From positions 1-32,193 of the IMG/VR virus record IMGVR_UViG_3300016476_001277: a DNA stretch of 32,193 bases; one strand, given 5' to 3'. The notes beneath the pieces are model-generated. The model had not been told where the DNA came from. It saw only the letters and a program-made list of their open reading frames with translations, and searched no databases. Both the position numbers and the translations under genes were made by a program. This document shows, one piece after another, positions 6,377 through 32,193 of this stretch. Source of the DNA: a virus (Duplodnaviria > Caudoviricetes). Each line of letters opens with the position of its first letter. Position 1 is the stretch's first letter.

Positions 6377-6396
6377 TCAATAATACCTTATAATTA
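6365..6396 (+). promoter_or_regulatory. class A promoter (TTG-N20-TATAATTA)
   Basis: GGTTGGA with TTG at 6366-6368, 20-nt spacer, TATAATTA at 6389. Confidence 0.5.
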
Positions 6397-6399
6397 ATT

Positions 6400-7047: not shown

Positions 7048-7056
7048 AGGAAAAAT

Positions 7057-7917: not shown

Positions 7918-7920
7918 TTT

Positions 7921-9194: not shown

Positions 9195-9837
9195 AGTTAC
9201 AGTTGTTATTGGGTCGTGCGATGCATATCAATCATTATGGAAAAATTTTGATATACTGTTTAACAGATACTGGAAACTAAAAACTACGAACATTTTCGTA
9301 GGCGAAACGATCCCGTTGCCCTATGACAACTATACCAATGTGTTGCCCGGCGCCGGACTGCCGTGGGGTTCTAGAATGTTAACTGCATTGAACATGGTAA
9401 CTACACCATATGTTTGTTTTTTATTGGAAGATTATTATTTTACGGAAATAATTACAGATACATTTATTCAAGAGCACATTGATATACTAGAACAGTATAA
9501 TGCACATAAAATTATGTTTGATAAACTATATCCGCCAGATGTATATAGTTTAACATCGTTAACATCGGATCTATATTTATTCAACAATCATAGTATGTAT
9601 TTGAATTCAGTCCAACCAGCAATATGGAAAACAGATTATATTAAAACGGTATTACATGAATCATATAGCCCATGGCAATTTGAATTAGACGGAAATGCAT
9701 TTACGCAGAAACTTAGCCCAGTAATACTTTTGAAAGCTCGCGAAAAATCAGTATATTTTAATTATGCTAGGGTCGGAGGACGAGTATCCGACGGATGGCA
9801 AGAAATTTTTTTAAAAGAAGGATTAACAAATGAATAA
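9184..9837 (+). CDS. putative glycosyltransferase (GT-A-like)
   Basis: VVIGSCDAY..LW, W..R, YVCFLLEDYY, QPAIW and SPWQFE. ATG 9184 preferred to the non-ATG start at 9166. Confidence 0.65.
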   Translation: MEDKVTVVIGSCDAYQSLWKNFDILFNRYWKLKTTNIFVGETIPLPYDNYTNVLPGAGLPWGSRMLTALNMVTTPYVCFLLEDYYFTEIITDTFIQEHIDILEQYNAHKIMFDKLYPPDVYSLTSLTSDLYLFNNHSMYLNSVQPAIWKTDYIKTVLHESYSPWQFELDGNAFTQKLSPVILLKAREKSVYFNYARVGGRVSDGWQEIFLKEGLTNE

Positions 9838-10417
9838 CCCACACATTGGTCAAATTCGTTATCACGAAATCATCAATTTTTTCACTCAAAAATTCAATTA
9901 CACTACGTATTTAGAATTAGGGGTTCGAGATGCTAATAACACTTTCAATCATGTTATATGTAACAGTAAAGAAGGCGTTGATTGCAACCCAGCAAGTAAC
10001 CCAACCCATTGTATGTATACAGACGAGTTTTTCGAAACTGTAGGTAAAGATAAAACATGGGACATTATTTTCATTGACGCATCGCACGAAAAAAATCAAG
10101 TTTTGCGCGATTTTGAAAATGCAATATCTAGATTAAATGAAAACGGGACTATAATTATGGATGATATTAATCCAACTGAACCATTTTTATTAAGCCCTAC
10201 ATTTTGTGACAATGCATGGGAAGCATTCGCCGAATTAGGTAAACGTTCTGATTTGCAAATGCATGCAGTAACTCCTTCATTTTTTGGTTTCGTACGAAGA
10301 GGACAACAAGTTCCACATAAATTAAAAGTGCAACCGACATTTGAATTTTTAGATCAACATCGAGAAGAAATCGTTCGACCTATAACATGGGATGAGTTAC
10401 TAATTATGTTCCAATAA
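9830..10417 (+). CDS. class I SAM-dependent methyltransferase (Methyltransf_24-like)
   Basis: YLELGV, TDEFF, DIIFIDASHE and LNENGTIIMDD. Confidence 0.85.
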   Translation: MNNPHIGQIRYHEIINFFTQKFNYTTYLELGVRDANNTFNHVICNSKEGVDCNPASNPTHCMYTDEFFETVGKDKTWDIIFIDASHEKNQVLRDFENAISRLNENGTIIMDDINPTEPFLLSPTFCDNAWEAFAELGKRSDLQMHAVTPSFFGFVRRGQQVPHKLKVQPTFEFLDQHREEIVRPITWDELLIMFQ

Positions 10418-10418
10418 T

Positions 10419-11309
10419 ATGAAAATTGCAGTTTTTGATACTATACATCATCCCACTCCAATTTTAAAGGAATGGGCAGTTGGATTTACGGATTTAGGGC
10501 ATGACGTCGATTTTTATGCAATTCAGCATCATACAATCTTATCTTGTATGAACATTGCGTATGATCTTATTGTATATGTTGGCGATATGAATCTAAATCA
10601 ATTTGAACAAATTAAACAAAATAATCCATCTGTTAAGATAGTATGTGCTGCAGATAGTTTACAGCCACATTTCGCTCATTTTAATGGTTTAGTTGATTTC
10701 TTTATAACTACGCAGCATTCATGCAAAACACTAACTGACAGTTTTACTAATGCAGGATTAAAGTTATATAATATTCCATTAGCTGGAAACAATCATTTAT
10801 TTTATCCGACTAACGTCTCACCTGAATATGACATATGTTTTATTGGCACGTTAGCGCATGGATATCGTGAAGAAGACAAATATTTATATCCATTTGTTGA
10901 AAAATATAAATTTTTCTTAGCTGGAATGACATATAAACATCACGGTATACCGTTCCTGAGTTATGATCAAGCAAATTCAGTTCGTAATAGATCTAAAATC
11001 AATATTAACTTTCATTATGATTATCAACGATTTAATGAAGGTAATCCTGCAGATAGGATCGATTTAAATCAAAGTGTGTATAATATTGCATTGTCAGGGG
11101 GATTCCAGATCTGCGACCACCCATTAGTATCAGATATATTTGATAATAGTATCATTGTAGCTCCATCACAAGAATGGCCAGAATTAATTGAGTATTATTT
11201 AAATAATCACGAAGAACGAATATCTTTAGCTAAAAAATCGTACGAAATTGCTCTAGAAAAACACACATGGAAAACCAGAATGGATGAATTTTTAAAATTA
11301 TTACAATAA
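10419..11309 (+). CDS. CgeB-like glycosyltransferase (GT-B)
   Basis: YDICFIG, SKININFH, IALSGGFQICD, IEYYLNNHEER and HTWKTR. Confidence 0.8.
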   Translation: MKIAVFDTIHHPTPILKEWAVGFTDLGHDVDFYAIQHHTILSCMNIAYDLIVYVGDMNLNQFEQIKQNNPSVKIVCAADSLQPHFAHFNGLVDFFITTQHSCKTLTDSFTNAGLKLYNIPLAGNNHLFYPTNVSPEYDICFIGTLAHGYREEDKYLYPFVEKYKFFLAGMTYKHHGIPFLSYDQANSVRNRSKININFHYDYQRFNEGNPADRIDLNQSVYNIALSGGFQICDHPLVSDIFDNSIIVAPSQEWPELIEYYLNNHEERISLAKKSYEIALEKHTWKTRMDEFLKLLQ

Positions 11310-11312
11310 ATT

Positions 11313-11936
11313 ATGAAACGATTAATAATAGCCCCGCATATTGATGACGAAGTATTAGGGTGCTTCAGTTCTATAGATTCAAATACCTTTATTTTGTATT
11401 GTGGTATGGATGAAAGTAAGATAAAATTTGATTGGGTAAAACAAAGACCTGATTCAGATACTCGACTGAACGAACTACGAGCTGTACAAGAAGAAATGTT
11501 ATTTTCATATGAAATATTAAATAATGAAGTTAACAATTATGTTATTCAAAATTTAATACCAGAATTTGAAAGAGTTATTAATCAAGTACGTCCAGATGAA
11601 TTATATATTCCAGTTCCGTCATACAATCAAGATCACCGAGTTGTATATGAAGCAGCATTAACGGCATTACGTCCTCATGATGTTAATTTCTTTGTAAAAC
11701 GAGTATTAGTATACGAACAAATACAAGATCTTTGGAATCATAATTATCATTCATTTAATCCTACATTTTTCAGAACATTGGATATAGATAAAAAAATTAA
11801 AATGTATAACTTGATGCAAAGCCAAGTAAGAGCTTTTAGAAATAACAACATGTTACAAACTTTAGCTGAATTACGAGGTATACAAGCAAATATTAAATAC
11901 GCTGAAGCGTTTGAGGTATTACGATGGATAGAATAA
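11313..11936 (+). CDS. PIG-L/LmbE-family N-deacetylase
   Basis: IIAPHIDDEVLG, RLNE, NQDH, KK...Y..SQ and AEAF. Confidence 0.88.
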   Translation: MKRLIIAPHIDDEVLGCFSSIDSNTFILYCGMDESKIKFDWVKQRPDSDTRLNELRAVQEEMLFSYEILNNEVNNYVIQNLIPEFERVINQVRPDELYIPVPSYNQDHRVVYEAALTALRPHDVNFFVKRVLVYEQIQDLWNHNYHSFNPTFFRTLDIDKKIKMYNLMQSQVRAFRNNNMLQTLAELRGIQANIKYAEAFEVLRWIE

Positions 11937-12607
11937 ACATATTATACTGCTCTTACAGAGATTGGGCTAATGACATATTATCTTATACTAAACATTTCTT
12001 AACGGAAGAATATAAGAATTTAAATGTTGATATAGTTCGTGTTTCATCAACTGACGAATTACTGCAAAAAAATCTATATGAATATGATTTATTATTTTTC
12101 ATTGGTTGGAGTGAATTGATTCCTGATTATATAGTTTCGAATAATTATTGTATATGTTTACATCCTTCTCCATTACCAAAGTATCGTGGAGGCAGTCCAA
12201 TACAAAATCAGATTATTAACGGAGATTATGACAGCGCTGTTAGTTTTTTTATAATGGACTCAGGAATTGACACTGGGGATATATTATATCAAACACCAAT
12301 TAAATTGGAAGGCGACTTATCAAATATCTTTGCAAAAATAATCAATATTTCATATCCAATTATATGTGCTATAATTAATGATTATGCGGTTAATAAAACA
12401 TTAAAGGGCATTCCTCAAAATCATGATAATGCAACTAGTTTAAAACGAAGAACTAAAAAAATGAGTGAAATTCAAATCACAGATTTTAGTCAATATACAG
12501 CAACTCAGTTATATGATAAAATTAGATCACTACAAGATCCATATCCAAATGCATTTATTCGATGTAAAGATGATACTATTTTATACATAACAAAGGCAAA
12601 ACTATGA
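11924..12607 (+). CDS. N10-formyl-THF-dependent formyltransferase (Fmt-like; probably a sugar N-formyltransferase)
   Basis: LHPSPLPKYRGGSPIQNQI, DSGIDTGDI and DPYPNAF; lacks the tRNA-binding C-terminal domain of a full Fmt. Confidence 0.85.
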   Translation: MDRINILYCSYRDWANDILSYTKHFLTEEYKNLNVDIVRVSSTDELLQKNLYEYDLLFFIGWSELIPDYIVSNNYCICLHPSPLPKYRGGSPIQNQIINGDYDSAVSFFIMDSGIDTGDILYQTPIKLEGDLSNIFAKIINISYPIICAIINDYAVNKTLKGIPQNHDNATSLKRRTKKMSEIQITDFSQYTATQLYDKIRSLQDPYPNAFIRCKDDTILYITKAKL

Positions 12608-13185
12608 ATATAACATCTTATATCATTAACTTAAAACATCGTACCGATCGATATGATCATATGGTAAATGAAATGAAAAAGTTTCCCGTTAATTATGAAT
12701 TTATCGAGGGTATTATTGATGAAACAAAAACATGTTTCCAATCACAAAAGAAATGTATTCGTTTAGCAAAAGAAAACAAATTGCCATATGTTTTAGTACT
12801 AGAAGATGATGCTATATTTACAGATAATATTATTGAAGTGTTTGAAACTACATTTTCAGAGTTACAGGCATTAGATTGGGATATGTTTTTTCTCGGAGCA
12901 AATTTACAAAAAGCATCAATTCGCGTATCTCCGAATATTTTAAAACTTAGCGGGGCATATGCAGCACATGCATATATGGTTCATGAAAGATTTTATGATA
13001 CTATTTTAAATTTACCACATATATGCGAAATGGATGTACATTATCACGATTTGATGTCTAGACACAACGTTTATATGTCAGATCCAATGGTTGCATATCA
13101 ACTACCATCACATTCAGATTTGCAAGATGGCTTTCGAGATTATAATCAAGCAATGTATAACAATTATTTAAGATTTAAACCATGA
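12604..13185 (+). CDS. glycosyltransferase family 25
   Basis: YIINLKHRTDR, LVLEDDA, WDMFFLG and AHAY. Confidence 0.85.
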   Translation: MNITSYIINLKHRTDRYDHMVNEMKKFPVNYEFIEGIIDETKTCFQSQKKCIRLAKENKLPYVLVLEDDAIFTDNIIEVFETTFSELQALDWDMFFLGANLQKASIRVSPNILKLSGAYAAHAYMVHERFYDTILNLPHICEMDVHYHDLMSRHNVYMSDPMVAYQLPSHSDLQDGFRDYNQAMYNNYLRFKP

Positions 13186-14042
13186 AGATATTATTAGGTT
13201 GTTTGAATGCAAATGGACTAGGTGGTAGCGAATTATATCATTATGAATTATCACGTGCATTAGATGAATTAGGCCACGATGTTACGTTATTTACTCTGCG
13301 CCAGATTGATTGGACAGATGAAACCCGGCTTCGTATACAACATATACGACAATTAGATTTAACAAATTTGGATATCACTGAAAAATACGATATAATAGTA
13401 GCAAGTCAGCCACAAGTTAATTTATTCGTGTTAGAACAGTTTAAAGATACGCCAATTGTTAGTATTATACATTCAGAAATCCGATCTGAAGATCCAATAT
13501 TAGATTCTCGTATTACTCATTACATTGCAATTAGACAGCCAATTGCAGATATGCTTATCAACGAATATAATATTCCACGTGAGAAAGTATCATTGATTTA
13601 TAATCCAATCGATCGTTCAAGATTTAATTCAGATGATGCTGCGAAATTAGAACGACATTCTGGAATCTTTGTCGGCGAAGTATTAGATTCTATTAGATTT
13701 AAGCCAGTGCAACATTTAGTGCAACAGTGTATTGAAAATGATTGGGACTTGTATTTAATGAGTGAAAGTCGTTATGATTTTAATCATCCGAATATTAAGT
13801 ATCTAGATAAACGCTGGGATACAGAAAATGTAGTACAAATGATGCACTTTACAGCAGGAATATTATTAGGAAGAACGACATTAGAGGGTTGGTGCTGCGA
13901 TGTTCCTGGATATATGTATATCATTGATATCAATGGAAATATTTTAGATATTCAGATGGAAATTCCTAACAACATCAAAACATTATGTGACAGTAGCTAC
14001 GTTGCAGAACAACATATAAACTTATATCAAACGATCATATGA
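13182..14042 (+). CDS. glycosyltransferase, GT4-like
   Basis: KILL...GLGGSELY..EL...L...GHDV, IYNPID and LGRTTLEG...DVP. Confidence 0.82.
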   Translation: MKILLGCLNANGLGGSELYHYELSRALDELGHDVTLFTLRQIDWTDETRLRIQHIRQLDLTNLDITEKYDIIVASQPQVNLFVLEQFKDTPIVSIIHSEIRSEDPILDSRITHYIAIRQPIADMLINEYNIPREKVSLIYNPIDRSRFNSDDAAKLERHSGIFVGEVLDSIRFKPVQHLVQQCIENDWDLYLMSESRYDFNHPNIKYLDKRWDTENVVQMMHFTAGILLGRTTLEGWCCDVPGYMYIIDINGNILDIQMEIPNNIKTLCDSSYVAEQHINLYQTII

Positions 14043-15172
14043 ATATATCATTACTAGTAGGATTAAAAAACAATTTAGACTACAACAAACATTTTTATGA
14101 AACAACAAGGCAACTTTACCCAGATGTAGAGTTATGTTTTGTTAGTTACGGATCAACAGACGGCACTCACGATTGGTTAAATTCATTAGTAGATAACAAT
14201 CTCAGTTACATTTATTCAACAGAATCCAAAACATTTTCTGATACATTTAATGCAGCTGCAGAACTTGCAACCAAAGATTATGTAGCATATCTACACAATG
14301 ACATTGTTCTAGCTCCGGGATTTTTAGAAAATTTAGAAAAACATGTAGGACCTAACAATGTAGTATCATATACCACAATAGAGCCACCTATATTCGCCGG
14401 ACATGAACGCCCTGGAAAAATAATACATGATCTAGGTACGGAACTAGAGACGTTTGATAAAGATGCTTTATACGCATTTGTAGAATCTAAACAACAATAC
14501 TATGCTGATAAAACTGAGCCTGGTATTACATTTTTTATGTGTATGCCTCGTGTTAAACTATTAGAGATAGGCGGACTTGATAATTTATTCAACCCAATGT
14601 TTTGCGAAGATGATGATTTAATTCGCCGTTGGAAGATGTTAGGAATGAATTGTTTTACAGCACTAGATGCAATTTGTTATCACTTTGTTAGCAAGACATC
14701 TAGATTCTCAGAAGAATATCAAACTAGAACTCAGCAAATTGAATTAGCTTCTAATAGAAACTATATTAGAAAATGGGGTACTAAATCAAATGCACCTAAA
14801 TATAATATTGGAATTCAAATTAAGAATTGTAATATTAAGATGCTAGAATTATTTGAACCTTATTGTGATCGAATATACATTGATGATGATATGCAAGTAC
14901 TAACAACACATTACATTGATTCAGAACAATCTAAAACCAAGTTCGACCTAACAAAACGTATAATGACAACCGGATATAATAATCCATATGATTATGATGA
15001 TATTGTAGTAGAAGTTGATGCAAAACGAATAACACAACAAGATGCTGCACATATATTCCTACTGCCGGAGATTATTCAGAATTCCGGAGAAATTGGGTCA
15101 TTTGAACTAGGAAATCTAAAAATTAATATACAGCATTTAGAAACATATGAAAAAAATCTGATTAATCTGTAG
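14039..15172 (+). CDS. glycosyltransferase family 2 with C-terminal extension
   Basis: GSTDGT, YLHNDIV, IGGLD..F.PMFCEDDD and YHFVSKTSR. Confidence 0.88.
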   Translation: MNISLLVGLKNNLDYNKHFYETTRQLYPDVELCFVSYGSTDGTHDWLNSLVDNNLSYIYSTESKTFSDTFNAAAELATKDYVAYLHNDIVLAPGFLENLEKHVGPNNVVSYTTIEPPIFAGHERPGKIIHDLGTELETFDKDALYAFVESKQQYYADKTEPGITFFMCMPRVKLLEIGGLDNLFNPMFCEDDDLIRRWKMLGMNCFTALDAICYHFVSKTSRFSEEYQTRTQQIELASNRNYIRKWGTKSNAPKYNIGIQIKNCNIKMLELFEPYCDRIYIDDDMQVLTTHYIDSEQSKTKFDLTKRIMTTGYNNPYDYDDIVVEVDAKRITQQDAAHIFLLPEIIQNSGEIGSFELGNLKINIQHLETYEKNLINL

Positions 15173-16946: not shown

Positions 16947-18881
16947 ATGAATTCATCTAAACTATTAACAAAAATACTGCGTGAAGAAATTAAGCCATTA
17001 GTTGCGACGCCGGTATTTATACAACATAGATTTGAACAGAGCTTAGAATTAGCACAGCGAAATCTAAATGAAGCAAAAACAGAAGCTATCCTAAGAAAAC
17101 CTAGATTGGTTGAGTATTATACTGCTAGTAACATTACAGATCCTAATTTTCGTCCGAAAAAACCTTGGACAGATGTTAAAGCGGAAACTACACTAAAACG
17201 ATTGGGAGCTAAACCATATAGATTAGGAATCAATCCGCACGGATATGAATTAGATACGCCAAATGATCGACTTTGGTTTTATTCGGATGGAGAAGTATAT
17301 AGTACCAATCAAAATCGAGAATTAGGATATGAAGTAGCACCTGGAGGAGCTGAAATTGAAATATGGAATGCACCCGGAGCAAAATCAACTAAAAGTGGAT
17401 TTAAAGTAGGTGTCATTAAAAATGTAAATGGAAAGCCTGTATTTACTTCATCAGACGAAAATTTAGAACGATCAGGAAAAGCTACCGAAACTCCAGAAGA
17501 ATCTTCATCAGGATGGGATACATTTCAAACTATATTAGATTGGGCAGGACTTGTTCCCGTAATTGGTGATGCATTAGATGTAATTAATGCTGTAATATAT
17601 TTTATTCGCGGTAAATGGTTTGATGGATTACTTTCGATGATCGCAGTAATTCCATTAGTTGGATCTGGAATTAAACTCAGCATTAAAGCTATCTATAAAG
17701 GCGCTAAGATAGAAAAATTAGTTGGATTATTAGCAACTTCGCTTAAAACAAAAAATACTGAAAAACTTTGGAGAGAATTAATGACCTCCGGAGCAATAAC
17801 AAAAGAACAACTAAAAGACTTAGGACCAGGTCTTGAAAATTTAGCAGAAGTTCTAAAATCATCATATTCGGGAATTAGAAAAATACCATTTATTGATTCT
17901 AATTGGATAATTAAACAATTGGATGAATTTGCTGAGTGGATGAAAAGTAGTGGAAAAACAATTGACGATTTAGCCGATGCATCTAAACGTGCAGGAGCAA
18001 AACAATTATATAAAGCTGCAGATGATATTAGCAGCAACGTTGGCTTCTTGCGTAGATTTGGAAATAGCATTACTGGAAACGTATTACCTAAATTGAAACG
18101 TGCTCCTTTCTGGCCAGCTAAAAAGATACAAAAAATTGCATTAGGATTAGAAACTCGATTTGCAAGAGAGATGGCAGCTGATCCAACTAAATTAACATCA
18201 TTGATTAAGTTAACTCCTAATCAAAATGCTCTAATTAAAAATCTAAGATCAGACCTAGTAACTAGAACGGCAGGATTACCAAAAGCAACTCAAGCTGAAT
18301 TCCGTAAAAGACTACAAGGCTCAGGTCTAATGATAGGTAATACGGGTAAAATAAACTTAAACACCGCAAGTGATTGGAGTAAGTTTTTAGAAATAACTGA
18401 ATTATATCCAGGAACTCGCGGATTATATGATTCGGCTGCTCAACAAATAATCAAACATGCAAAAGACAATGATTCTATAATGTGGAATCTTTTTAAAACT
18501 GATAGATTGAACAATATAAAAACTATATTAAGTAAAGATATGATTCCAGAAGGATCTAACTTATTCAAAGAATTAGATTTTTCATTTAGAAAAAATGCAG
18601 ATATTATTTGGAATGAACTTCAAGATGTAGGCGAATCATTAGGAATAAAAAGCCAAGACGATGTTAATGGGGTTGTATGGCCAGCAGTAACATATGCTGT
18701 TGCAGAATATTTGCCAGGAGTATATGATGCTGGTAAAACGGTACAAGGTTGGGTAAAAGCAGCAACAGGTTCTCCTGCAGGACAAGCTGCTTGGAATACT
18801 GCAAAAAAAGCAGTTGGAATTGATTCTCAATCAGAATTAGCATATGATCCAGAAGCTGAAAAAGGCGGGGACTACAAATAA
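16947..18881 (+). CDS. large putative virion protein with a pre-toxin-TG-like hydrophobic module
   Basis: N-terminal KLLTKILREE leader; LDWAGLVPVIGDALDVINAVIYFIRG...IPLVG at about 17514-17667; long helical C-terminal region. Confidence 0.6.
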   Translation: MNSSKLLTKILREEIKPLVATPVFIQHRFEQSLELAQRNLNEAKTEAILRKPRLVEYYTASNITDPNFRPKKPWTDVKAETTLKRLGAKPYRLGINPHGYELDTPNDRLWFYSDGEVYSTNQNRELGYEVAPGGAEIEIWNAPGAKSTKSGFKVGVIKNVNGKPVFTSSDENLERSGKATETPEESSSGWDTFQTILDWAGLVPVIGDALDVINAVIYFIRGKWFDGLLSMIAVIPLVGSGIKLSIKAIYKGAKIEKLVGLLATSLKTKNTEKLWRELMTSGAITKEQLKDLGPGLENLAEVLKSSYSGIRKIPFIDSNWIIKQLDEFAEWMKSSGKTIDDLADASKRAGAKQLYKAADDISSNVGFLRRFGNSITGNVLPKLKRAPFWPAKKIQKIALGLETRFAREMAADPTKLTSLIKLTPNQNALIKNLRSDLVTRTAGLPKATQAEFRKRLQGSGLMIGNTGKINLNTASDWSKFLEITELYPGTRGLYDSAAQQIIKHAKDNDSIMWNLFKTDRLNNIKTILSKDMIPEGSNLFKELDFSFRKNADIIWNELQDVGESLGIKSQDDVNGVVWPAVTYAVAEYLPGVYDAGKTVQGWVKAATGSPAGQAAWNTAKKAVGIDSQSELAYDPEAEKGGDYK

Positions 18882-18882
18882 C

Positions 18883-20244
18883 ATGTTACTAGAATATAAA
18901 ACACATAGCAGACTGAATCCGAAACTTTGGGATGGTGATCAACTTTATCCCAAACTTCGTGTAGGCCTAACAAAGATTGCTATGGAATTCTATAAATTTC
19001 TAGATGTTGATGTTGAAATAAAGGACATAATTTTAATTGGAAGCAATGCAAACTATAATTGGACAAGATTCAGTGATATAGATTTACATGTTGTTATCAA
19101 TTACTTGGAAGTTGGCGACAATTTGCATATTATTAAAAATTATATGCACGCCAAAAAAAGTATTTGGAATGTGAATTATCCTTTAAAATTCAAAGGAATG
19201 AGTATAGAATTATACGCACAAGATTCTAATGAAGATCTTCATTCAACAGTTGGAGTATATTCTATACTGCATGGTAATTGGATACGAAAACCGAAGTCTG
19301 ATACAGTATCGATTGATGACGCTATGATACGACAAAAAGCAGAATCGTTTGAGTTTGAGATTGATTCACTTACAGAGTCAGATCCACACGCAGAACACAA
19401 AATAAAAAATATTAAAGACAGGTTAAAACACTTACGTAGTAGCGGTTTAGAAGCCGAAGGAGAATATTCTATAGAAAACATGGCTTACAAATATCTACGT
19501 AATAAAGGTTATTTAGAACGTTTAAACAGATTGGAACAAAAAATATCTAGAGGTCGTCTTGCTATAGAACATGTTGTAAAAGAACAAAAACTAGGCAATA
19601 TGAAGGATCAAGCACAAGCTAAAATATCAAGATTGGTATCGGCAGCAAAAACAGAATCAGCTGAATCAAAAAAAGCTCTACAAATGTTGATTCAACATGT
19701 TAATGGAAATAAATTAACAGATGAAGAATGGAAATGGGTTCGTGAACAACTTAAGGATATTTTAAAACTTTTAGGATTAACTACATTAGCAATTGCTCCG
19801 GGAGGAAGTATTGTTGCGTTATTATTAAAAGCAATAAAGGCAGATAAATACATTTTACCGTCTGCATTTAAAACACCTGAGCATGAAAAAGAAGTTACAG
19901 AATCATTGATCTTACATGTAACTAATAAAAAACCGTTAGACACTGCCGGCTGGAATAATATAATGCAAAAAACAAACGCAGTTACTGATCCTAGGGGACA
20001 ATGGGATCATCCAGGTCGATGCACTATGATTCCAACAGAAGATGGGCGAATAACAATGCAAAATGTTGCACATGAGGTATTTGGTATCGATGAAACAGGA
20101 CATGCACAATTAATGTTACCCGAACAAGAATATCAATTCTCAGGTACGCAAGTGTTTGAAATACCAAAGACTGCACAATATCAAACAATGGTAATGCAAT
20201 TGCAAAATTCAATTAATAATGGAGGAATTGATGCAAAATGGTAG
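18883..20244 (+). CDS. Pol-beta-superfamily nucleotidyltransferase fused to a LETM1-like segment and a C-terminal beta-rich phage domain
   Basis: IILIGSNANYNWTRFSDIDLHVV (GS...DxD) plus ELY; LTDEEWKWVREQLKD...PGGS...LPSAF; GQWDHPG...ITM...VFEIP. ATG 18883, just after the upstream stop, is preferred. Confidence 0.75.
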   Translation: MLLEYKTHSRLNPKLWDGDQLYPKLRVGLTKIAMEFYKFLDVDVEIKDIILIGSNANYNWTRFSDIDLHVVINYLEVGDNLHIIKNYMHAKKSIWNVNYPLKFKGMSIELYAQDSNEDLHSTVGVYSILHGNWIRKPKSDTVSIDDAMIRQKAESFEFEIDSLTESDPHAEHKIKNIKDRLKHLRSSGLEAEGEYSIENMAYKYLRNKGYLERLNRLEQKISRGRLAIEHVVKEQKLGNMKDQAQAKISRLVSAAKTESAESKKALQMLIQHVNGNKLTDEEWKWVREQLKDILKLLGLTTLAIAPGGSIVALLLKAIKADKYILPSAFKTPEHEKEVTESLILHVTNKKPLDTAGWNNIMQKTNAVTDPRGQWDHPGRCTMIPTEDGRITMQNVAHEVFGIDETGHAQLMLPEQEYQFSGTQVFEIPKTAQYQTMVMQLQNSINNGGIDAKW

Positions 20245-21249: not shown

Positions 21250-21720
21250 ATGAAACGACTTGACGAATGTGGTTGTAATTCTGAGACGGATCACAGCAAT
21301 ACTTCTAACTACATGTTTTTTGAAAATTTAAAAACTATTAAAAAGGCAGTAGAAGCAATGTTGCAATTAGATCCATCTGAGGTAGATCGTATGTTATCAA
21401 ACGGCCATGCATGGGCAGTAGACCATATTGCAACATCTAAAGATGATATGGAAGAAGTTAGTGGGTTTCTAACAAACTCAATAAACTCTAATTCTAATCA
21501 AATGCCTAATGATATTGCATATAATTCGCAACAACCACAATTCGTTCCTGTTAACTTTAAAAATCATTTGCGCAATGTAATGTCTGAAAAAATTCAGAAA
21601 GTTGAAGGAGGATGGGCAGTATATCCTAGTAAAGGTGGAAAACGTTTAGGAACACACCCGACTAAAAAAGCAGCACTTAAACAACTAGCAGCAATTGAAA
21701 TTTCAAAACAGCGAAACTGA
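21250..21720 (+). CDS. hypothetical modular phage protein
   Basis: NYMFFENL...GHAWAVDHIATSKDD domain plus a basic C-terminal mini-domain (GGKRLGTHPTKKAALKQLAAIE). Confidence 0.75.
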   Translation: MKRLDECGCNSETDHSNTSNYMFFENLKTIKKAVEAMLQLDPSEVDRMLSNGHAWAVDHIATSKDDMEEVSGFLTNSINSNSNQMPNDIAYNSQQPQFVPVNFKNHLRNVMSEKIQKVEGGWAVYPSKGGKRLGTHPTKKAALKQLAAIEISKQRN

Positions 21721-22139
21721 TGCAAAAGCTAAAACACATATTAATTGAAGCACAAACTAAATGTCCGGTGGCAACACAAGATATTCATGTTAACTTAGAA
21801 AACCGTCAACATGCAATAGACGAATATTATTATGGCCCTGCTAATCCAGATCGGCCGGGAACGTATTGGAAAGATGCAGCAAAACGATGGAAAATTGACG
21901 AAGACACTGCAAAAACAATGAAATGTGAAAATTGCGCAGCATTCGACGTTTCTGATAAGATGTGGGCTTGCATGGAAAAGGGTATTAAAGGCGATGAAAA
22001 AAATATTGATGCAATGGCCACTATTGAAAAAGCAGATTTAGGCTATTGTAATTTTTTACATTTCAAATGCGCCGGTTCTAGGTCTTGTACTGCTTGGGTT
22101 ACTGGAGGCGCATTAGATGACAAGGATTTAACCAAATGA
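21720..22139 (+). CDS. Cys-rich putative metal/Fe-S-binding phage protein
   Basis: CPVATQD, CENCAAF, GYC....FKC...SCTAW; leader MQKLKHILIE. Confidence 0.7.
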   Translation: MQKLKHILIEAQTKCPVATQDIHVNLENRQHAIDEYYYGPANPDRPGTYWKDAAKRWKIDEDTAKTMKCENCAAFDVSDKMWACMEKGIKGDEKNIDAMATIEKADLGYCNFLHFKCAGSRSCTAWVTGGALDDKDLTK

Positions 22140-22531
22140 TGCGATTGAAGAATATATTAAATGAAAGCAATGTGCCGGATCCAATATTGGTTGCGAAGCC
22201 GTTCTTTAAAGAGTTTTCAAAACAAATGAAAACTACTGCTAAATTTTCATATTTAGGTTTAAAAAATAAAGAATATATTTTTACTGCCCCAATAGAAGAT
22301 TTAGGAACATTAAAGCTAATATTTTCTAGAGCTGAGTTTGTTGCAAAGGTTTGTGATTCATATGCATATTTTGGTATTGTTTATTTACTTAATGGATTGG
22401 AACAATTCGATGCAACGGTTTGTTTGATAACAAAAAAGAAAAATTCATTTAGTACTAAATTGTTTGATGATGCTGACTCAGATTTTAACAATTCAAAAAC
22501 CAATTTTTCAAACATAATAAAAAAGTTATAA
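22136..22531 (+). CDS. hypothetical protein with MRLKNILNE leader
   Basis: Overlapping start and stop with both neighbours. Confidence 0.7.
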   Translation: MMRLKNILNESNVPDPILVAKPFFKEFSKQMKTTAKFSYLGLKNKEYIFTAPIEDLGTLKLIFSRAEFVAKVCDSYAYFGIVYLLNGLEQFDATVCLITKKKNSFSTKLFDDADSDFNNSKTNFSNIIKKL

Positions 22532-23237: not shown

Positions 23238-23435
23238 ATGAATGAAAATTTTATTGATAAGTTGTTGATATCATCAATCAATCATATGAAGACTAATTCC
23301 TGGGAATGGCCAGAACATTGGGACACTGATCGTAAATTACGATTCTTATCTCAATGTCTCAAGTATGCTGAAGATAATGAGTTTTACGAACAATGTGCAA
23401 TTATTAGAGATGTCCAAAAAACAATTGAAAAGTAA
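23238..23435 (+). CDS. small protein with a C-terminal UVR (UvrB/C)-like motif
   Basis: AEDNEFYEQCAIIRD resembles A...EEYEEAARIRD. Confidence 0.6.
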   Translation: MNENFIDKLLISSINHMKTNSWEWPEHWDTDRKLRFLSQCLKYAEDNEFYEQCAIIRDVQKTIEK

Positions 23436-23676
23436 ACGAGGTCAGTGGCAAGTAATATTGCATAACGATGATCACAATACATTTGACCATGTTGTAGAGT
23501 GTTTGATACAAATTTGTAATCATAGTTATATACAGTCAGTTCAATGCGCACATATTGTTCATAATTGTTTACAATGTTCAATATTTGTAGATTATTACGA
23601 TGAATGTGAATTAGTATATAATGAACTACTAGAACAAGGTTTAATGGTTAGTATATCAAAAGCTAATAAAATATGA
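23410..23676 (+). CDS. clpS: ATP-dependent Clp protease adaptor ClpS
   Basis: VILHNDDHNTFDHVVECL...H...Q..QCAHIVH...C; ATG 23410. Confidence 0.85.
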   Translation: MSKKQLKSKRGQWQVILHNDDHNTFDHVVECLIQICNHSYIQSVQCAHIVHNCLQCSIFVDYYDECELVYNELLEQGLMVSISKANKI

Positions 23677-24238: not shown

Positions 24239-24790
24239 ATGAGTCAGCAGTATAAATACGTATATGGTAAAGGCCGTACGGCATTTGATTTACCTGAATC
24301 AGATATTCGATATGCGATGTCTAACACGAAGTCAAATGCAGAAGCTGCTAGGTTTTTAAAGATTTCATTTACTACGTATAAAAAATACGCTAAAATGTAT
24401 ATTGATTCCAGTACTGGCAAAACCTTGTATGATCTTCATACTAATCAAGCCGGTATTGGAATTAATAAAGATGTAGCTCGAGCAACGAGCGGACAATATA
24501 GTATCGATAGAATTTTGCAAGGAGAATTTCCTAACTACCCAACATGGAAAATTCGAAATAGAATCTTAGCATTAGGCATACTTGCAGAAAAATGTAATTC
24601 TTGTGGATACGAAGAACGCAGGGTAACTGACGACACAGTGCCATTACTTTTAGACCATATTGATGGAGATGAATCTAACCATTGCATCGAAAACTTACAA
24701 TTGCTTTGTTTGAATTGTTACTACCAACAAACAGGCAATCCATTTAACAAAGACAAAGAAACGTTTTGGAACTATAATTTACTTGATTGA
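24239..24790 (+). CDS. HTH + HNH-like zinc-finger protein
   Basis: SNAEAARFLKISFTTYKKY (HTH); CNSCG...LDHIDGDESNHCIENLQLLCLNC (HNH, final His replaced by Tyr). Confidence 0.8.
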   Translation: MSQQYKYVYGKGRTAFDLPESDIRYAMSNTKSNAEAARFLKISFTTYKKYAKMYIDSSTGKTLYDLHTNQAGIGINKDVARATSGQYSIDRILQGEFPNYPTWKIRNRILALGILAEKCNSCGYEERRVTDDTVPLLLDHIDGDESNHCIENLQLLCLNCYYQQTGNPFNKDKETFWNYNLLD

Positions 24791-24797
24791 TATTTAT
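24790..24797 (+). promoter_or_regulatory. class B motif ATATTTAT
   Basis: Overlaps the upstream TGA and ends 4 nt before ATG 24802. Confidence 0.5.
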
Positions 24798-24801
24798 TAA
24801 T

Positions 24802-25551
24802 ATGATATCAATGAAGAAACTTGTTGTAGAAGGTCGATATGATGCATTAGTTACTAAGCTATCGCAAACGTTGCTATCTGTTGTAAAAGATAGCTATTCA
24901 GCAGTATCAAACCCAAACGGCGAGTTTTCAGGCCAGAAGATATACTTCAAACAAAATGAATCTGTTCCTAATATCGACGATGATTCTGAATTTCAACACA
25001 TATATTTTGAAGAGGTAGAAAATTCTACAATTCCATTAGATTTTTACTTGCAATTTAAAGTTCAGTGGATCGAAGGCTATAATGATTATAGTTATGGTGG
25101 AGATGCATACAATGATACGAAACGTACTTCAGATGATATGCCATTAATTGAAATACGAATTCAACTTGACCCGGCAGACTATCCTAAAATTTTAAGCACA
25201 GTTGCAATGGATTTGAGAGATACCTTGCGCCACGAAATAGAACATACAACGCAATCTGGGTGGAACACGATAGATTCAAAGTATCTACCATCCGATCAGG
25301 CACAGCGCAAAAAAATATCCGCTGGTACCGTCAAGCCGTCTGAGTATTTTCTACTTAAAAAAGAAATACCTGCAATGATACAAGGTTTGTATCTCAAAGC
25401 TAAAAAGAAACGAGTGCCATTCAAAAGTGAAGTAGACCAGTATTTAGATATTTGGATACGAAACGGCAGTATGTCTGCTGAAGACAAGCAACGAATAATT
25501 AATACTTGGAAAACATATTTACCTAAACTAGGAATACGACAGGAGTTGTAA
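24802..25551 (+). CDS. putative zincin-like metalloprotein (HExxH)
   Basis: DTLRHEIEH..Q with downstream YFLLKKEIPA (candidate third ligand E); leader MISMKKLVVE. Confidence 0.65.
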   Translation: MISMKKLVVEGRYDALVTKLSQTLLSVVKDSYSAVSNPNGEFSGQKIYFKQNESVPNIDDDSEFQHIYFEEVENSTIPLDFYLQFKVQWIEGYNDYSYGGDAYNDTKRTSDDMPLIEIRIQLDPADYPKILSTVAMDLRDTLRHEIEHTTQSGWNTIDSKYLPSDQAQRKKISAGTVKPSEYFLLKKEIPAMIQGLYLKAKKKRVPFKSEVDQYLDIWIRNGSMSAEDKQRIINTWKTYLPKLGIRQEL

Positions 25552-25991
25552 TGAAAATGTATATTGATGAGTCAGCACCATGTTGGTCTGGCTATGAAAT
25601 GATTGGAATGAAAAATAAAGCAGGACGCAAAGTTCCTAACTGTGTTCCAATACAGGAAGCCGACGGGTATTGCCCTTCTTGCTTGATTGAATATATTAAA
25701 CGATCTGTAAATGAAAATGAATTCATTAACATTGTAGAGCCAGGACTTAATGAAGCAGAATATCGTGGACGAAAAGTTAAGCTCGGCAAACCAATGCAAG
25801 GCGATGTTAAGAAATTCAAAGTTTACGTTAAGAATGACAAAGGCAACGTTGTAAAGGTCAACTTCGGAGACCCTAATATGAGGATACGTAAAAGCAATCC
25901 AGCACGTAGACGTTCATTTAGAGCTAGACACCGTTGTGAAACTCCTGGGCCGAGATGGAAAGCTAGATATTGGTCTTGTCGTAAGTGGTAA
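25551..25991 (+). CDS. modular basic phage protein (CW.GY..VPNCVP module + AEY.GRKV..RARH.C..ARYWSC.W module)
   Basis: Both modules are recognisable phage mini-domains, separated by x-x-E motifs. Confidence 0.75.
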   Translation: MKMYIDESAPCWSGYEMIGMKNKAGRKVPNCVPIQEADGYCPSCLIEYIKRSVNENEFINIVEPGLNEAEYRGRKVKLGKPMQGDVKKFKVYVKNDKGNVVKVNFGDPNMRIRKSNPARRRSFRARHRCETPGPRWKARYWSCRKW

Positions 25992-26209: not shown

Positions 26210-26336
26210 TTTAGGTGCATCACGAGAATCACAAAAGCAACAAGGCTTCTTTGATGGTCGATTCGTTGCGAGGACTGAACAATCTAAAAAAACATATACT
26301 CGTAAAAACAAACATAAAAATAAATCATATGAATAA
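26184..26336 (+). CDS. 50-aa basic peptide, ArfA/BrfA-like
   Basis: MNNQTLKINLGASRESQKQQGFFDGRFVARTEQSKKTYTRKNKHKNKSYE; DxxFxxRxExxKK..YxRKxKH pattern. Confidence 0.55.
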   Translation: MNNQTLKINLGASRESQKQQGFFDGRFVARTEQSKKTYTRKNKHKNKSYE

Positions 26337-27414
26337 ACTACTAGTAGTATTCTTGTTTTTAGCAGGGTTTGCTAAAACACAAACTGTTGTACAATTCGAT
26401 CGGATGGAAACGTGGTCTCCAGCATACGCAACATCAGGATGGTGGATTCCAGCAGCAACCGCAACTTGGGCATCTAACACATCAGTGTCACCATCAACAA
26501 GCGCTGTTATATATGGATTAGGAAGTGGTACCTCAACAATTGAGCAAGATTGGTATTCATTGCCTAACGTTACTGGACTAAATACATCGCATCCATATCA
26601 ATTGAAATTTCGATTAGCATCACATACATTTACAGCTCCTGCAGCAGCAACAAGGGGAGTAGATGCTGCTGATATAGTTGAAGTACAAGTATCAACAAAC
26701 GGCGGCATATCATACGTACAAGAGTTAAGAATAACTGGTAACTCTAATGCCCAATGGCCATTTACCGCATCTGGTACAATTATACATAATGCAAACGGTA
26801 TTTGGACTAATTCTGCCGCTCCAGCTGGAGATGTTTATCAAGCACCTGCAGGAGTAACGACAACGGGCCCTACTACAATTACACTTAATTTGCCAACCGG
26901 AATTTCGCAGGTAGCAATTGATATCCTTTGTAGAATCAATTCAGCCGGAGAAGAATGGTGGATTGATGATATTGAATTGATCGAGATATTTCCGCTGCCG
27001 GTGGAGTTAATGTCATTCGAAGGATTTTCTACAGAGAATGGCAATGTGATAACATGGGTAACTGCGACTGAACATAATTCAGATTATTATTTAATTGAAC
27101 GTACTACAACCGGTGAGTTCAATGAGAATTCAGTAATCGGTCAGAAACCAGCTATGGGTAATACTACTCAGCAATCATCATATTCATTTGTCGATAATCA
27201 GTTTGATAATGCTATTAATTATTATCAGCTTGTACAAGTAGATATAGATGGACAATATAAAATATACGGCCCGATATCTATCAACAATTTAATTAAACCT
27301 CGCAACGTTGTTAAGATCATCAACATGTTAGGACAAGAATGCGACCCTAACTCAGATCATGGCGTATTCATTGAAATTTATGATGATGGTACCATGGAAA
27401 AAGTTTATCGATAG
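26329..27414 (+). CDS. secreted beta-sandwich protein with Bacteroidota PLPVEL/Ig-like and CTD-like domains
   Basis: Signal peptide MNKLLVVFLFLAGFAKT|Q; PLPVELMSF...W.TATEHNSDYY.IER...YY.LVQVDIDG; terminal KIINMLGQE...YDDGTMEK. ATG 26329 preferred. Confidence 0.75.
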   Translation: MNKLLVVFLFLAGFAKTQTVVQFDRMETWSPAYATSGWWIPAATATWASNTSVSPSTSAVIYGLGSGTSTIEQDWYSLPNVTGLNTSHPYQLKFRLASHTFTAPAAATRGVDAADIVEVQVSTNGGISYVQELRITGNSNAQWPFTASGTIIHNANGIWTNSAAPAGDVYQAPAGVTTTGPTTITLNLPTGISQVAIDILCRINSAGEEWWIDDIELIEIFPLPVELMSFEGFSTENGNVITWVTATEHNSDYYLIERTTTGEFNENSVIGQKPAMGNTTQQSSYSFVDNQFDNAINYYQLVQVDIDGQYKIYGPISINNLIKPRNVVKIINMLGQECDPNSDHGVFIEIYDDGTMEKVYR

Positions 27415-27464: not shown

Positions 27465-28592
27465 ATGAAGAAAATTTTTGGAACAGTTACAGATTATCGA
27501 GTATTTGAGGTAGGAACGAATCGCGACATTACACATCTATTTCGCGATATCATGATTAAAAATGCTGTAGAAAACGGCAAGGCATTAGCATTCGATGAGG
27601 AATCGCAACGCGCAAGACAAGTAGAATTGAGTGAAATCCCAACCGAACGAAATATAGAACAGCCAAAAATGGAACCTGTAGAGATGGATGCTGCAATGAA
27701 ACTTATTTCCAAAGCAGCTGACATCAAACCAGCTGACTTAGAAATGTCAGATATCAAATGGAAGTATCTAGTACGCTCAGCCGTTCGAGGAAAAAATATC
27801 ATGATGGTTGGTCCGGCAGGTTGTGGTAAAACACAAGCAGCAAAAGCATTGCCAGAAGCTACCAATAGACCTTTCTTTTATTTTAACTTAGGTGCTACGC
27901 AAGATCCACGCGCTACCCTTATTGGTAATACGCATTTCAAGGCCGGCGAGACTACCTTTGATGAGTCTGCTTTCGTAAAAGCAATTCAAACAGAGAATGC
28001 TGTAATCTTAATGGATGAGTTGTCTCGTGCGCACCCGGAAGCATGGAACATTTTAATGACTGTTTTAGATGAGGGACAACGTTATTTGAGACTAGATGAG
28101 GATATGGATTCTCCGACAATAAAAGTTGCACCAGGAGTATCATTTATTGCAACAGCAAACATTGGTACCGAATATACATCGACTCGAGTATTAGACCGAG
28201 CATTGATGGATCGTTTTGAAATCATTGAAGTTGATATCTTGACTTTAGAACGAGAAGAAGCATTATTGACTAAACGTTATGGCACAAAGGTGTCTGCAGA
28301 ATTAATTCATGCAGTTGCTGATATTGCAGACTCTACTAGAAAAGAATGGAGGTCAGAAGCCGGCAAACTTACCACTATGATTTCCACTCGTATGACAGTT
28401 CGAGTATGTGAATTGTTAGCAGATGGATTTACCCTTTCAGAAGCCGCAGAGGTAGCAATTCTTCCATTCTTTGATGCATCAGGAGGTACGGATGCAGAAA
28501 GAACCTTTGTAAAGCAAATTATTCAGAAACATATGGCAACCGCCGAACAAGATATTTTCAATACCGGAAAAGACGAATCGATTCCGTTTTAA
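27465..28592 (+). CDS. MoxR/CbbQ/CobS-like AAA+ ATPase
   Basis: GPAGCGKT (Walker A), ILMDELSRA (Walker B), FIATAN, LDRALMDRF and ISTR. Confidence 0.92.
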   Translation: MKKIFGTVTDYRVFEVGTNRDITHLFRDIMIKNAVENGKALAFDEESQRARQVELSEIPTERNIEQPKMEPVEMDAAMKLISKAADIKPADLEMSDIKWKYLVRSAVRGKNIMMVGPAGCGKTQAAKALPEATNRPFFYFNLGATQDPRATLIGNTHFKAGETTFDESAFVKAIQTENAVILMDELSRAHPEAWNILMTVLDEGQRYLRLDEDMDSPTIKVAPGVSFIATANIGTEYTSTRVLDRALMDRFEIIEVDILTLEREEALLTKRYGTKVSAELIHAVADIADSTRKEWRSEAGKLTTMISTRMTVRVCELLADGFTLSEAAEVAILPFFDASGGTDAERTFVKQIIQKHMATAEQDIFNTGKDESIPF

Positions 28593-28609
28593 GATCTTTT
28601 TCATAGCTC

Positions 28610-28676
28610 AAAAAATGGAGTGAGCCAGTTAACCTGATAGGCATACTGGTTAGTGTGAAACAGCTCCATTTTTTTT
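28610..28676 (+). terminator. extended multi-stem terminator-like RNA structure
   Basis: AAAAAATGGAG (28610-28620) pairs with CTCCATTTTTT (28664-28674); inner stems AGCCAGT/ACTGGTT and CCT/AGG; U-tract to 28676. Confidence 0.6.
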
Positions 28677-28686
28677 AAATTTTCGG

Positions 28687-28717
28687 TTGGATCATACTGT
28701 AAATTTTCTTATATTTA
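28687..28717 (+). promoter_or_regulatory. class A promoter (TTG-N20-TATATTTA)
   Basis: CGGTTGGA with TTG at 28687-28689 and TATATTTA at 28710. Confidence 0.65.
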
Positions 28718-28737
28718 AAGTATAAAAATAATGAGAT

Positions 28738-30864
28738 ATGAAAAAAGATTTTGGATTTAGAGGATATAGTTCACGCCAAGCATCTAGCTTTTGGTTGAGC
28801 GATGATTTTGATACCTCATTTCGTGTAGGCAGCAAGCATGATTATACTAAATTAGCTGCAACCCAACGAGCTATTGCAAACTTTGTTAATATTGTAACGG
28901 GCAAGCAAATACCAGTAGTATTTCAAAGCAACGATTCTAGTTATACAGACGGAGATCGAGTTGTTATCGGAACAAAGCTAGAAGATAAAAACTTTGATTC
29001 TGCAGTTGGATTAGCATTGCACGAAGGCTCGCATATTGCATTCACTGATTTTTCATTGTTTAAAGGTGCAACTCGCCTGAGTAATTCTCCATTTGCAAAT
29101 TATATTCGTATGCAAGGGTTAGATCCGGATCTCACAATGACAGAACAAGATTTTTCTATCATTAAAGATTTATTGAATTGGATTGAAGACCGCCGCATTG
29201 ATTATAAAATTTATACAAATGCTCCAGGATACCGTATGTATTATGAAGCAATGTATGACAAATACTTCAATGACAAGATCATCGATAAGGCATTAGTGCG
29301 TGGCGAAAAATGTAATGAAGATTTAGATTGTTATTTATTTCATATCATTAATTTTACGAATCCAAATAGGCAGTTAGATGCTTTATCGCAACTTAGAAAT
29401 ATCTGGAATCTTATTGACTTAAGAAATATCAATCGTCTTAAAACAACTACAGATGCACTGAATGTAGCGTGTCAAGTTTTTAAAATATTGAAGTCAACTG
29501 TTGTAGCTCCAACACCTAATAAGTCAAAGGCTACAACAACTTCAAAAGGCAATGGTACGGGCACTAGCACAGCAAGTAAACCAAGTAAACCCGAATCAGA
29601 CGAATCAGACGAAAATAATGAAACAGACTCTGATTTAGACGATGTAGATAATGTAGGATTTGATGATTCAGATGAAAGCGACTCGCCAGACTTTGATGAC
29701 TTAGACGATGCCACCGGCGAATCTAGTAACACGCAGCAATCTTCATTATCTCAAAAAGAATTAGATAAATTGGAGAAAGCAATTAATGCTCAGCGAGACT
29801 TTTTGCAAGACAATATTAAAAAGCAAGGGCGTCTTACAAAAGCTGATGCAAGTATAGTTGATGCAATTAAAGAATCGGGTACCGAAACTAGAACCGTATA
29901 TACCGATGATGCAGGAACAATGAATCCAATAACTGCGGTAGTTATCAAGAAAATTACTCCTGCAATTATTCAAAGTATACCTAGTTTATTTTGTAGTTAT
30001 TCTGATGACTTTGTTACCGGAGTTCGTTCACTCGAAAATGCCGACCAATCATACGCTGGCCGTGCAATTTTAAAAATAGATAATGCTGTGAACCAAGGCA
30101 TCATTTTAGGTAAAAAGCTAGGAAGCAAATTGCAACTTAGAAATGCAGACAAGAGTTTAAAGACGACACGTTTGACAACCGGTAAGATTGATCGAAGATT
30201 AATATCTCAACTAGGATATCAAAATGTGAATGTATTCCATCGCATCGTAACTGATCGTTATAAGAATTACTTTATTCATATTTCCATTGATGCATCGGGA
30301 TCAATGGCTGGGAAGAAATTTGAAAATGCAATCATGTCAGCAGTAGCAATTGCACAAGCAGCTTCAATGACTACCGGTATACGAGTTCAGATATCTTTAC
30401 GAGGGACTGAATCAATTGGTGGCAATCAAGAAAAGGTTGTAACATTGTATGCATATGATTCAGCTGTTGATAAGATGAGTAAAATTAAAACATATTTCAA
30501 ATACCTTAGCACATTTGGATGCACTCCAGAAGGATTAGCATTTAAAAGTATCGAGCAAGATATCAAAAAGGATGCTAAAGGTGATGAATGTATCTTTATT
30601 AATTACTCAGATGGAGAACCAACAAGTGTAACTGGAGTAAGTCCTCATTATAATGGTGTTCGTTTTACGAAAAAAGTTATTAACGGATTCCGAGAGTTAA
30701 ACATGACGATAATTAGTTATTTCATTGTTGAAGGATATGCATATGATTCTACTAGAGATAAATTTAAAACTATGTATGGACCGGATGCAGCATTTATCAA
30801 TCCGCTCAATATGTCAGAAGTAGCTAAATCGATGAATTCAAAATTCTTGGAAATTGCTAAGTAA
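28738..30864 (+). CDS. CobT-like vWA protein with an N-terminal HExxH domain (partner of the AAA+ ATPase)
   Basis: LHEGSH, NWIEDRRID, long acidic D/E/S linker, GKIDRR, IDASGSM (MIDAS), TPEG and SDGEP. Confidence 0.85.
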   Translation: MKKDFGFRGYSSRQASSFWLSDDFDTSFRVGSKHDYTKLAATQRAIANFVNIVTGKQIPVVFQSNDSSYTDGDRVVIGTKLEDKNFDSAVGLALHEGSHIAFTDFSLFKGATRLSNSPFANYIRMQGLDPDLTMTEQDFSIIKDLLNWIEDRRIDYKIYTNAPGYRMYYEAMYDKYFNDKIIDKALVRGEKCNEDLDCYLFHIINFTNPNRQLDALSQLRNIWNLIDLRNINRLKTTTDALNVACQVFKILKSTVVAPTPNKSKATTTSKGNGTGTSTASKPSKPESDESDENNETDSDLDDVDNVGFDDSDESDSPDFDDLDDATGESSNTQQSSLSQKELDKLEKAINAQRDFLQDNIKKQGRLTKADASIVDAIKESGTETRTVYTDDAGTMNPITAVVIKKITPAIIQSIPSLFCSYSDDFVTGVRSLENADQSYAGRAILKIDNAVNQGIILGKKLGSKLQLRNADKSLKTTRLTTGKIDRRLISQLGYQNVNVFHRIVTDRYKNYFIHISIDASGSMAGKKFENAIMSAVAIAQAASMTTGIRVQISLRGTESIGGNQEKVVTLYAYDSAVDKMSKIKTYFKYLSTFGCTPEGLAFKSIEQDIKKDAKGDECIFINYSDGEPTSVTGVSPHYNGVRFTKKVINGFRELNMTIISYFIVEGYAYDSTRDKFKTMYGPDAAFINPLNMSEVAKSMNSKFLEIAK

Positions 30865-30899: not shown

Positions 30900-32193
<1,294 letters not shown>

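Follow-up and report, generated by a model that had tools for sequence, protein, structure and literature searches.

A phage protein joining a Pol-beta nucleotidyltransferase, a LETM1-related segment and a third module at candidate prohead-protease sites

How should a single phage gene be read when it joins a nucleotidyltransferase (NTase), a segment resembling LETM1 and a third phage domain: as one enzyme, or as several proteins made in one chain? The gene (P0001) occupies positions 18883..20244 on the plus strand of the window, the 32,193-nt viral stretch analysed here, in which almost all genes lie on that strand. As defined by its open reading frame and by homologue searches, it encodes 453 amino acids; the start at 18883 is favoured over an upstream ATG at 18844, since homologues mostly begin with M-x-x-E there. 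The original prediction, whose reading frame, motifs and positions were all recovered, had offered an injected or membrane- or ribosome-localised enzyme, or else a polyprotein of separate effectors. Its NTase fold and LETM1 likeness stand, its polyprotein option is the best supported, and ribosome targeting through the middle segment is not supported. We consider that the gene probably encodes a head-packaged polyprotein that a T4-type head protease cuts into three cargo proteins, here called A, B and C, for delivery with the DNA.

The search for relatives returned 664 proteins of similar length, of which the best 120 were taken up, so that the architecture count covers 121 proteins (the query, its database copy and 119 others). 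With A+B+C in 90 of them, A+C in 30 and A+B in one, the fusion is real and conserved. At 20 of 23 viral loci the homologue spans the query from its first to approximately its last residue, two of these lacking B. An assembly chimera at the junctions, a worry raised with the original prediction, is ruled out by the 90 three-module proteins and the 20 loci; chimera and chance resemblance together keep a negligible probability, with this three-part gene recurring in 88 further database proteins and on numerous independent contigs of viruses. The proposed check for separate genes or shuffled orders shows that all three modules are found alone or with other partners. A SET domain replaces module C in two relatives (P0122 and P0123), and an extra module of about 200 amino acids is inserted at junction 1 in another (P0082). 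This insert (residues ~250–430, between A and B) is without a Pfam match and carries a G-F-S-A-G-G motif, which we take to resemble the nucleophile elbow of alpha/beta hydrolases. The A–C fusion is almost constant in this clade, and a search for longer C-bearing proteins gave matches dominated by close relatives.

The full-length model, with low-confidence linkers, has a pTM of 0.40 as against 0.74 for A alone, which favours separate modules; the low full-length value could also stem from its alignment, which is shallow and comprises 28 similar sequences. Searched by sequence against the PDB, the whole protein and its parts A (close alignment), B and C brought nothing of use, and weak Pfam matches to a tape measure protein and to YihI were dismissed as helical noise. 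In searches of the open literature, no listed paper treats this protein or LETM1-like modules of phages.

Module A (residues 5–234; 18895..19584, plus strand) comprises a Pol-beta-superfamily NTase and a C-terminal helical bundle, assigned from PHROG 36119, profiles and the model. The NTase signature G53-S54 ... D65-x-D67 maps to 19039..19089 and the third acid, E109, to 19207–19209, both on the plus strand and both placed from alignments. In an alignment chosen without regard to the motif, G53, S54, D65, D67 and E109 are invariant (28/28). Across 56 diverse members, G53, D65, D67 and E109 are invariant together with R185, K203 and R206 of the helical part (56/56); since most rows of this set were gathered with a pattern fixing G53–H69, its unbiased residues are those outside that span. 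PHROG 36119, a family of unknown function, covers residues 3–220 (E 3e-48), and PF01909 matches 55 of the 56 members weakly, at E ≤ 0.1. The generic NTase profiles PF01909, PF18765 and PF22600 scored below or near cut-off. Modelled alone, A has a pLDDT of 90 and strands at residues 48–52, 66–72 and 106–114. The Pol-beta reading is borne out by the motif and the predicted palm fold, that is by the profiles, this model and the weak NTase rows of a Foldseek search.

In that search against the PDB, A gave no match at E ≤ 0.001, the listed rows having E values of at least 1.2e-3. The list is headed by aminoglycoside and lincosamide adenylyltransferases, CdnC/CdnD, MNT antitoxins and CutA, at TM-scores of at most 0.31. 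All of the 36 listed rows except GrpB (2nrk) and Pla1 (7q72) are titled NTases or their complexes, and these two presumably have the NTase fold as well. The best profile match of A is the AMPylase domain of DrrA (E 0.017), and the MntA profile reached the protein at E 0.066. No named subfamily (CD-NTase, MenT/AbiEii, CCA/TUTase, RlaP, ANT or MNT) was matched above cut-off or, by Foldseek, over the whole domain; ESM Atlas clusters retrieved with A are viral and unnamed or generic NTases, and nothing more. The GS, DxD and third acid are shared with ANT(9)/AadA/ANT(4')/LinB, MNT, DrrA, CdnC/D, CCA-adding enzymes and TUTase, whereas comparison with those NTases and their helical C-terminal domain gives TM-scores of at most 0.31 over the domain and identities of 9–18%. 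Signatures of A's own are the ANYNW motif and a C-terminal R-x-x-GL...GE-x-S-x-EN...K-x-LR. Judged by sequence and model, A is a Pol-beta NTase with an intact catalytic triad that lies outside every characterised subfamily compared. The sections of two articles that treat RlaP, CCA-adding enzymes, HIGH NTases and head-packaged ADP-ribosyltransferases (ARTs) do not describe A's family (PMC7824862, PMC9503650).

In GenBank, 45 records of phages of Synechococcus, Caulobacter, Maribacter and Prevotella contain a homologue of A, each alignment spanning 80% or more of the domain; the exact NTase motif is present in about 540 stored viral stretches. In S-CRM01, Molly, Cr30, S-CREM2 and DSL-LC03, A is a separate gene of about 235–265 amino acids. 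Its nearest, weak neighbours adenylylate hydroxyl groups and A is equally small, so we lean slightly towards a protein hydroxyl, as for MNT and DrrA, as its tentative target. An RNA 3′ end is nearly as probable a substrate, a small molecule or signalling nucleotide little less so, and anything else improbable.

Module B (19585..19902, plus strand; core 19609–19872) is a LETM1-related, optional and mobile segment delimited by profiles and by an indel. The LETM1 resemblance of the original prediction is upheld by matches to NCBIfam NF040639 ('LETM1-related biofilm-associated protein') and to Pfam PF07766. The window's B matches NF040639 at profile positions 306–391 of 396 (E 7.3e-8), with a score of 32 bits, far below the whole-protein equivalog cut-off of 250 bits. 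We aligned 61 B modules, namely the window's and 60 short proteins from the 150 matches listed: 57 match NF040639 at E ≤ 0.01 and 28 match PF07766 at E ≤ 0.1, the window's own B giving no PF07766 match. One member (P0131) matches PF07766 at positions 1–58 of 229 only; we assume that these first 58 positions are its membrane-side segment. Searched against the PDB, the B profile matched no solved LETM1 or Mdm38 chain. UniProt A0A6J5N8A7, 67% identical, is already named 'LETM1-like'.

The core of B is 88 amino acids long, and B ends about 10 residues past its LPS-x-F motif. Residues 293–315 (19759..19827, plus strand) form a hydrophobic stretch broken by A-P-G-G (mean Kyte–Doolittle 1.94), a candidate membrane helix or hairpin that may insert. 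From this stretch, the end of the PF07766 match at position 58 and the lack of a solved soluble-domain match, we conclude at the level of sequence that B is the membrane-side piece of LETM1 without the ribosome-binding soluble domain. B thus shares homology with some 86 C-terminal positions of NF040639 and with the beginning of PF07766, but differs from the LETM1 family in having no ribosome-binding domain, EF-hand or coiled-coil tail, in scoring far below the family cut-offs and in being mobile among phage proteins. In LETM1 the single membrane helix precedes the soluble domain, and the crystallised ribosome-binding fragment of Mdm38 comprises residues 160–408 (PMC6358941). That B might act as a LETM1/Mdm38-type ribosome-binding domain and hold the enzyme at ribosomes, as had been suggested, follows from its homology to the family; we now regard it as very unlikely, given an 88-residue module set against that fragment, a match confined to positions 1–58 of 229 and no match to a solved Mdm38 soluble domain.

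Nor is B a dedicated anchor of this NTase, since it is missing from 30 of the 121 proteins, wholly absent from two of three near-complete related genomes and joined to many unrelated partners. In those 30 it is excised cleanly between V-V-N-E-type and E-V-T-E motifs. Across 1.84 billion representatives, a profile search identified 257 that carry B at 50% clustering; many are stand-alone genes of 90–150 amino acids and others are chains of up to 4358. Among 57 proteins picked mainly by length for a partner scan, the neighbours of B in long chains are GNAT, InPase (inorganic pyrophosphatase), HIGH NTase, PolyA_pol, lysozyme, ankyrin and DUF domains, and other B-bearing proteins also show ART-like and weak metallopeptidase matches. 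In a FastTree of the NTase domains, with low support within the clade, A is found with B in two separate NTase lineages; the tree suggests that B was gained or lost repeatedly. Searched against GenBank phages, B gave no match, so there is no cultured test case for it. A broad alignment of the module contains no conserved stretch.

The third module of the original prediction is present at residues 341–453 (module C; 19903..20244, plus strand). It is small, confidently modelled and of no named family, with a GQW-x-HPG ... VFEIP core at 19996–20166. The window's copy has no Pfam, NCBIfam or PHROG match and no usable match in the ESM Atlas, and of 12 aligned copies, two give a marginal match to phrog_36695, 'virion structural protein' (E 0.044). 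Distant copies (P0376–P0388; loci L138, 5971–7458, and L148, 7986–10673) lie at the start of other proteins, with x-x-G-G motifs repeated after them. C thus appears to travel also in phages with a different junction code, x-x-G-G without Glu motifs.

The x-x-E motifs that had been noticed at the junctions are there, and they are conserved. The four-residue leader M-L-L-E (18883..18894) is a candidate gp21-type site, LLE4, present in 116 of 116 aligned homologues. Junction 1, V-K-E234 (19576..19584), is a candidate prohead-protease site kept in 91 of 114 homologues and missing in 23, and lies in a region with pLDDT below 50 (residues 224–256). Junction 2, V-T-E340 (19894..19902), likewise a candidate site, is kept in 108 of 118 and sits at the edge of the B indel; all three are on the plus strand. 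The protein has eight [ILV]-x-E motifs in total. Against cleavage at the junctions, the motif is short, and V-F-E426, within a strand of C, is as well conserved as they are (117/118); the remaining four are kept in at most 54 of 119.

T4 gp21 cleaves after the Glu of L/I-x-E (PMC9026906; also PMC12991175). Both internal sites here begin with Val, in contrast to the Ile or Leu of the T4 rule, and the leader has four residues rather than the 10 of the T4 capsid-targeting sequence. The homologues in S-CREM2, S-CRM01, Cr30 and Molly have longer leaders, as do stand-alone genes for B and C. Leaders of similar type also open neighbouring genes of the window (21720, 22136 and 16947).

The motif also accompanies the modules outside this gene. 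In cases long enough to test, [ILV]xE lies within 22 residues of B on its N-terminal side in 62/76 and on its C-terminal side in 49/60, compared with 344 of 1288 other windows (27%) and 106 of 449 windows inside B; since the proteins are related to one another, neither these nor the following counts represent independent events. When the linker windows were shuffled, the mean was 38 before and 28 after B, and the observed counts were reached in 0 of 1000 shuffles. Among 13 distant NTases that carry a C-terminal partner, 12 have the motif at the end of the domain (mean of 5.3 in shuffles; reached in 0 of 2000), and on the N-terminal side it occurs in 11 of 16, a weaker enrichment that 26 of 2000 shuffles reach.

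Scanned by family profiles, the 32-kb record has neither a gp21-type protease nor a gp23-type capsid gene, so the protease is inferred from relatives. PF03420 and PF07068, the gp21-type protease and gp23-type capsid families, are each present in four of five related records and in all three that are at least 90% complete. The relatives with these head genes are 160–170 kb long, and the capsid protein and protease of one bear such motifs near their ends.

Packaging gains indirect support from a homologue. ORF156 of S-CREM2, a stand-alone version of A (79/216 identical, 37%), is among the 52 proteins detected in CsCl-purified virions in the virion table of PMC10665884, where its values are 6 and 15.2, taken here as peptides and percent coverage; the support thus concerns a 37%-identical cyanophage protein, and contaminants may accompany purified virions. 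The same table also lists the neighbours of ORF156, namely ORF154, 155 and 160 (PMC10665884). ORF154–160 (locus L149, 2570–7197) form an unannotated cluster with T4-like leaders, four of whose members are listed there, and offer a system in culture for studying this class of cargo. The injected enzyme of the original prediction accordingly gains, by analogy, a homologue of A in a virion proteome, while ejection of the present protein is something we infer.

These detections bear on the view that the protein is a late intracellular one that is never packaged, for example an NTase for RNA-end repair or anti-defence, with Glu motifs left as relics of fused leader-bearing genes. Stand-alone homologues of A do often sit among replication genes in cyanophages and Cr30, jumbo phages encode predicted RNA-end-repair NTases (RlaP, CCA-adding; PMC7824862), and the gene here adjoins lysis genes. 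The presence of ORF156 and its three neighbours in the S-CREM2 virion table (PMC10665884) argues the other way, as do the retention of the junction motif across 55–85% identity and, as a weak link, a C-like region that opens gp040 of phi4:1, a virion structural protein detected by mass spectrometry. On balance we find it improbable that the protein stays out of the virion.

Packaging could also take place with the chain uncut, or cut at the leader only, B tethering the NTase and C to the host membrane as one multidomain enzyme. The hydrophobic stretch of B is of membrane grade, and the near-constant A–C fusion and the pairing of A with B in two NTase lineages could reflect a functional partnership; some polyvalent proteins, moreover, are packaged unprocessed (PMC5512222). 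Against this, B is dispensable, the motif flanks it whatever the partner, and in the short linkers conservation falls precisely on the Glu; C, moreover, occurs as a gene by itself at the same locus, with a leader of its own and without an in-frame NTase (L133). An uncut, tethered enzyme is therefore unlikely in our judgement. Among the options of the original prediction, a polyprotein of separate effectors is the best supported, by the shuffling of its modules and the enrichment of the junction motifs. The polyprotein would be made late and enter the prohead core, where gp21 would cut after E4, E234 and E340 to give products 5–234, 235–340 and 341–453. All three would leave the head with the DNA and enter the host. 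There A may, as a low-confidence prediction, attach a nucleoside monophosphate to some target of the host soon after infection begins, and B is predicted from its hydropathy to insert into the host inner membrane by itself.

The closest parallels are the T4 internal proteins IPI–III and Alt, which share [IL]-x-E sites at the leader and the gp21/gp23-type head seen in the relatives (PMC9026906). Alt is an enzyme cargo delivered with the DNA, as proposed here for a protein whose homologue occurs in virions (PMC9026906). In T4, as described there, the protease trims propeptides from single proteins, whereas here the sites lie between unrelated folded modules. Family scans found no sequence likeness to the T4 internal proteins or to Alt. 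Polyvalent proteins, which are predicted to be delivered on invasion and processed, likewise unite mutually unrelated domains, enzymatic or unknown, in a single chain, and their architectures are shuffled (PMC5512222). They differ in the embedded metallopeptidase, for which processing in trans by the prohead protease would substitute here, and a family scan found none of their hub domains (zincin peptidase, ArdC-N, MuF, LPDs) in P0001. The Pol-beta NTase in the account of PMC5512222 is the minimal four-strand domain of firmicute conjugative elements, which differs from A, and the main text of that article does not mention LETM1.

Other genes of the window may belong to the same cargo. Small genes at 21250–22531 and 24787–25991 have short leaders ending in [ILV]-x-E, and some match unnamed PHROGs; they are probably further head cargo. 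Directly upstream, 16947–18881 encodes a 644-residue protein whose first 60 residues hold several [IL]-x-E motifs; Pfam, PHROG and NCBIfam searches gave it no match. A hydrophobic stretch near its residues 190–245 presumably resembles the pre-toxin motifs of polymorphic toxins. Its homologues range from 611 to 837 amino acids and are absent from some relatives. Receiver-domain-like and flanking genes lie between the holin and the NTase gene in two related loci, read from their first residues only (L008, 456–3068; L010, 2786–5602).

Elsewhere, about 14 genes at 3621–15172 encode GT1/GT4-like, GT2 and GT25 glycosyltransferases, epimerases, a formyltransferase, a PIG-L deacetylase and a methyltransferase, a gene content that varies among relatives. 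Further downstream are a ClpS homologue (23365–23676), a 399-residue protein with a signal-peptide-like start and a weak phrog_3741 match (26215–27414), a MoxR/CbbQ-type AAA ATPase beside a vWA (CobT-like) protein (27465–30864) and GroEL (30906–32192). The C-terminal region of the 399-residue protein is of a type associated with secreted Bacteroidota proteins and may hint at the host.

To the proteins jointed by protease motifs this gene adds a member and a testable enzyme, not a new principle. The more distinctive results are a widespread, uncharacterised NTase family with a virion-detected cultured member and the placement of B as the membrane-side piece of LETM1. The head-packaged modifying enzymes known so far are mostly ADP-ribosyltransferases of the Alt type. 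A's family is widespread and without a close solved structure, and its substrate is open to direct testing, since virions of a cultured phage have already been reported to contain a member. We think it unlikely, though of consequence, that large T4-type phages inject, out of such polyproteins, a structurally distinct Pol-beta enzyme that within the first minutes nucleotidylates some target of the host, while a free, minimal LETM1 hairpin inserts into the host membrane and changes ion flux. If true, the enzyme would found a class of its own among injected modifying enzymes and the hairpin would be the LETM1 family's smallest functional unit; at 90 residues, a free hairpin would also give a compact way into the disputed transport role of LETM1.
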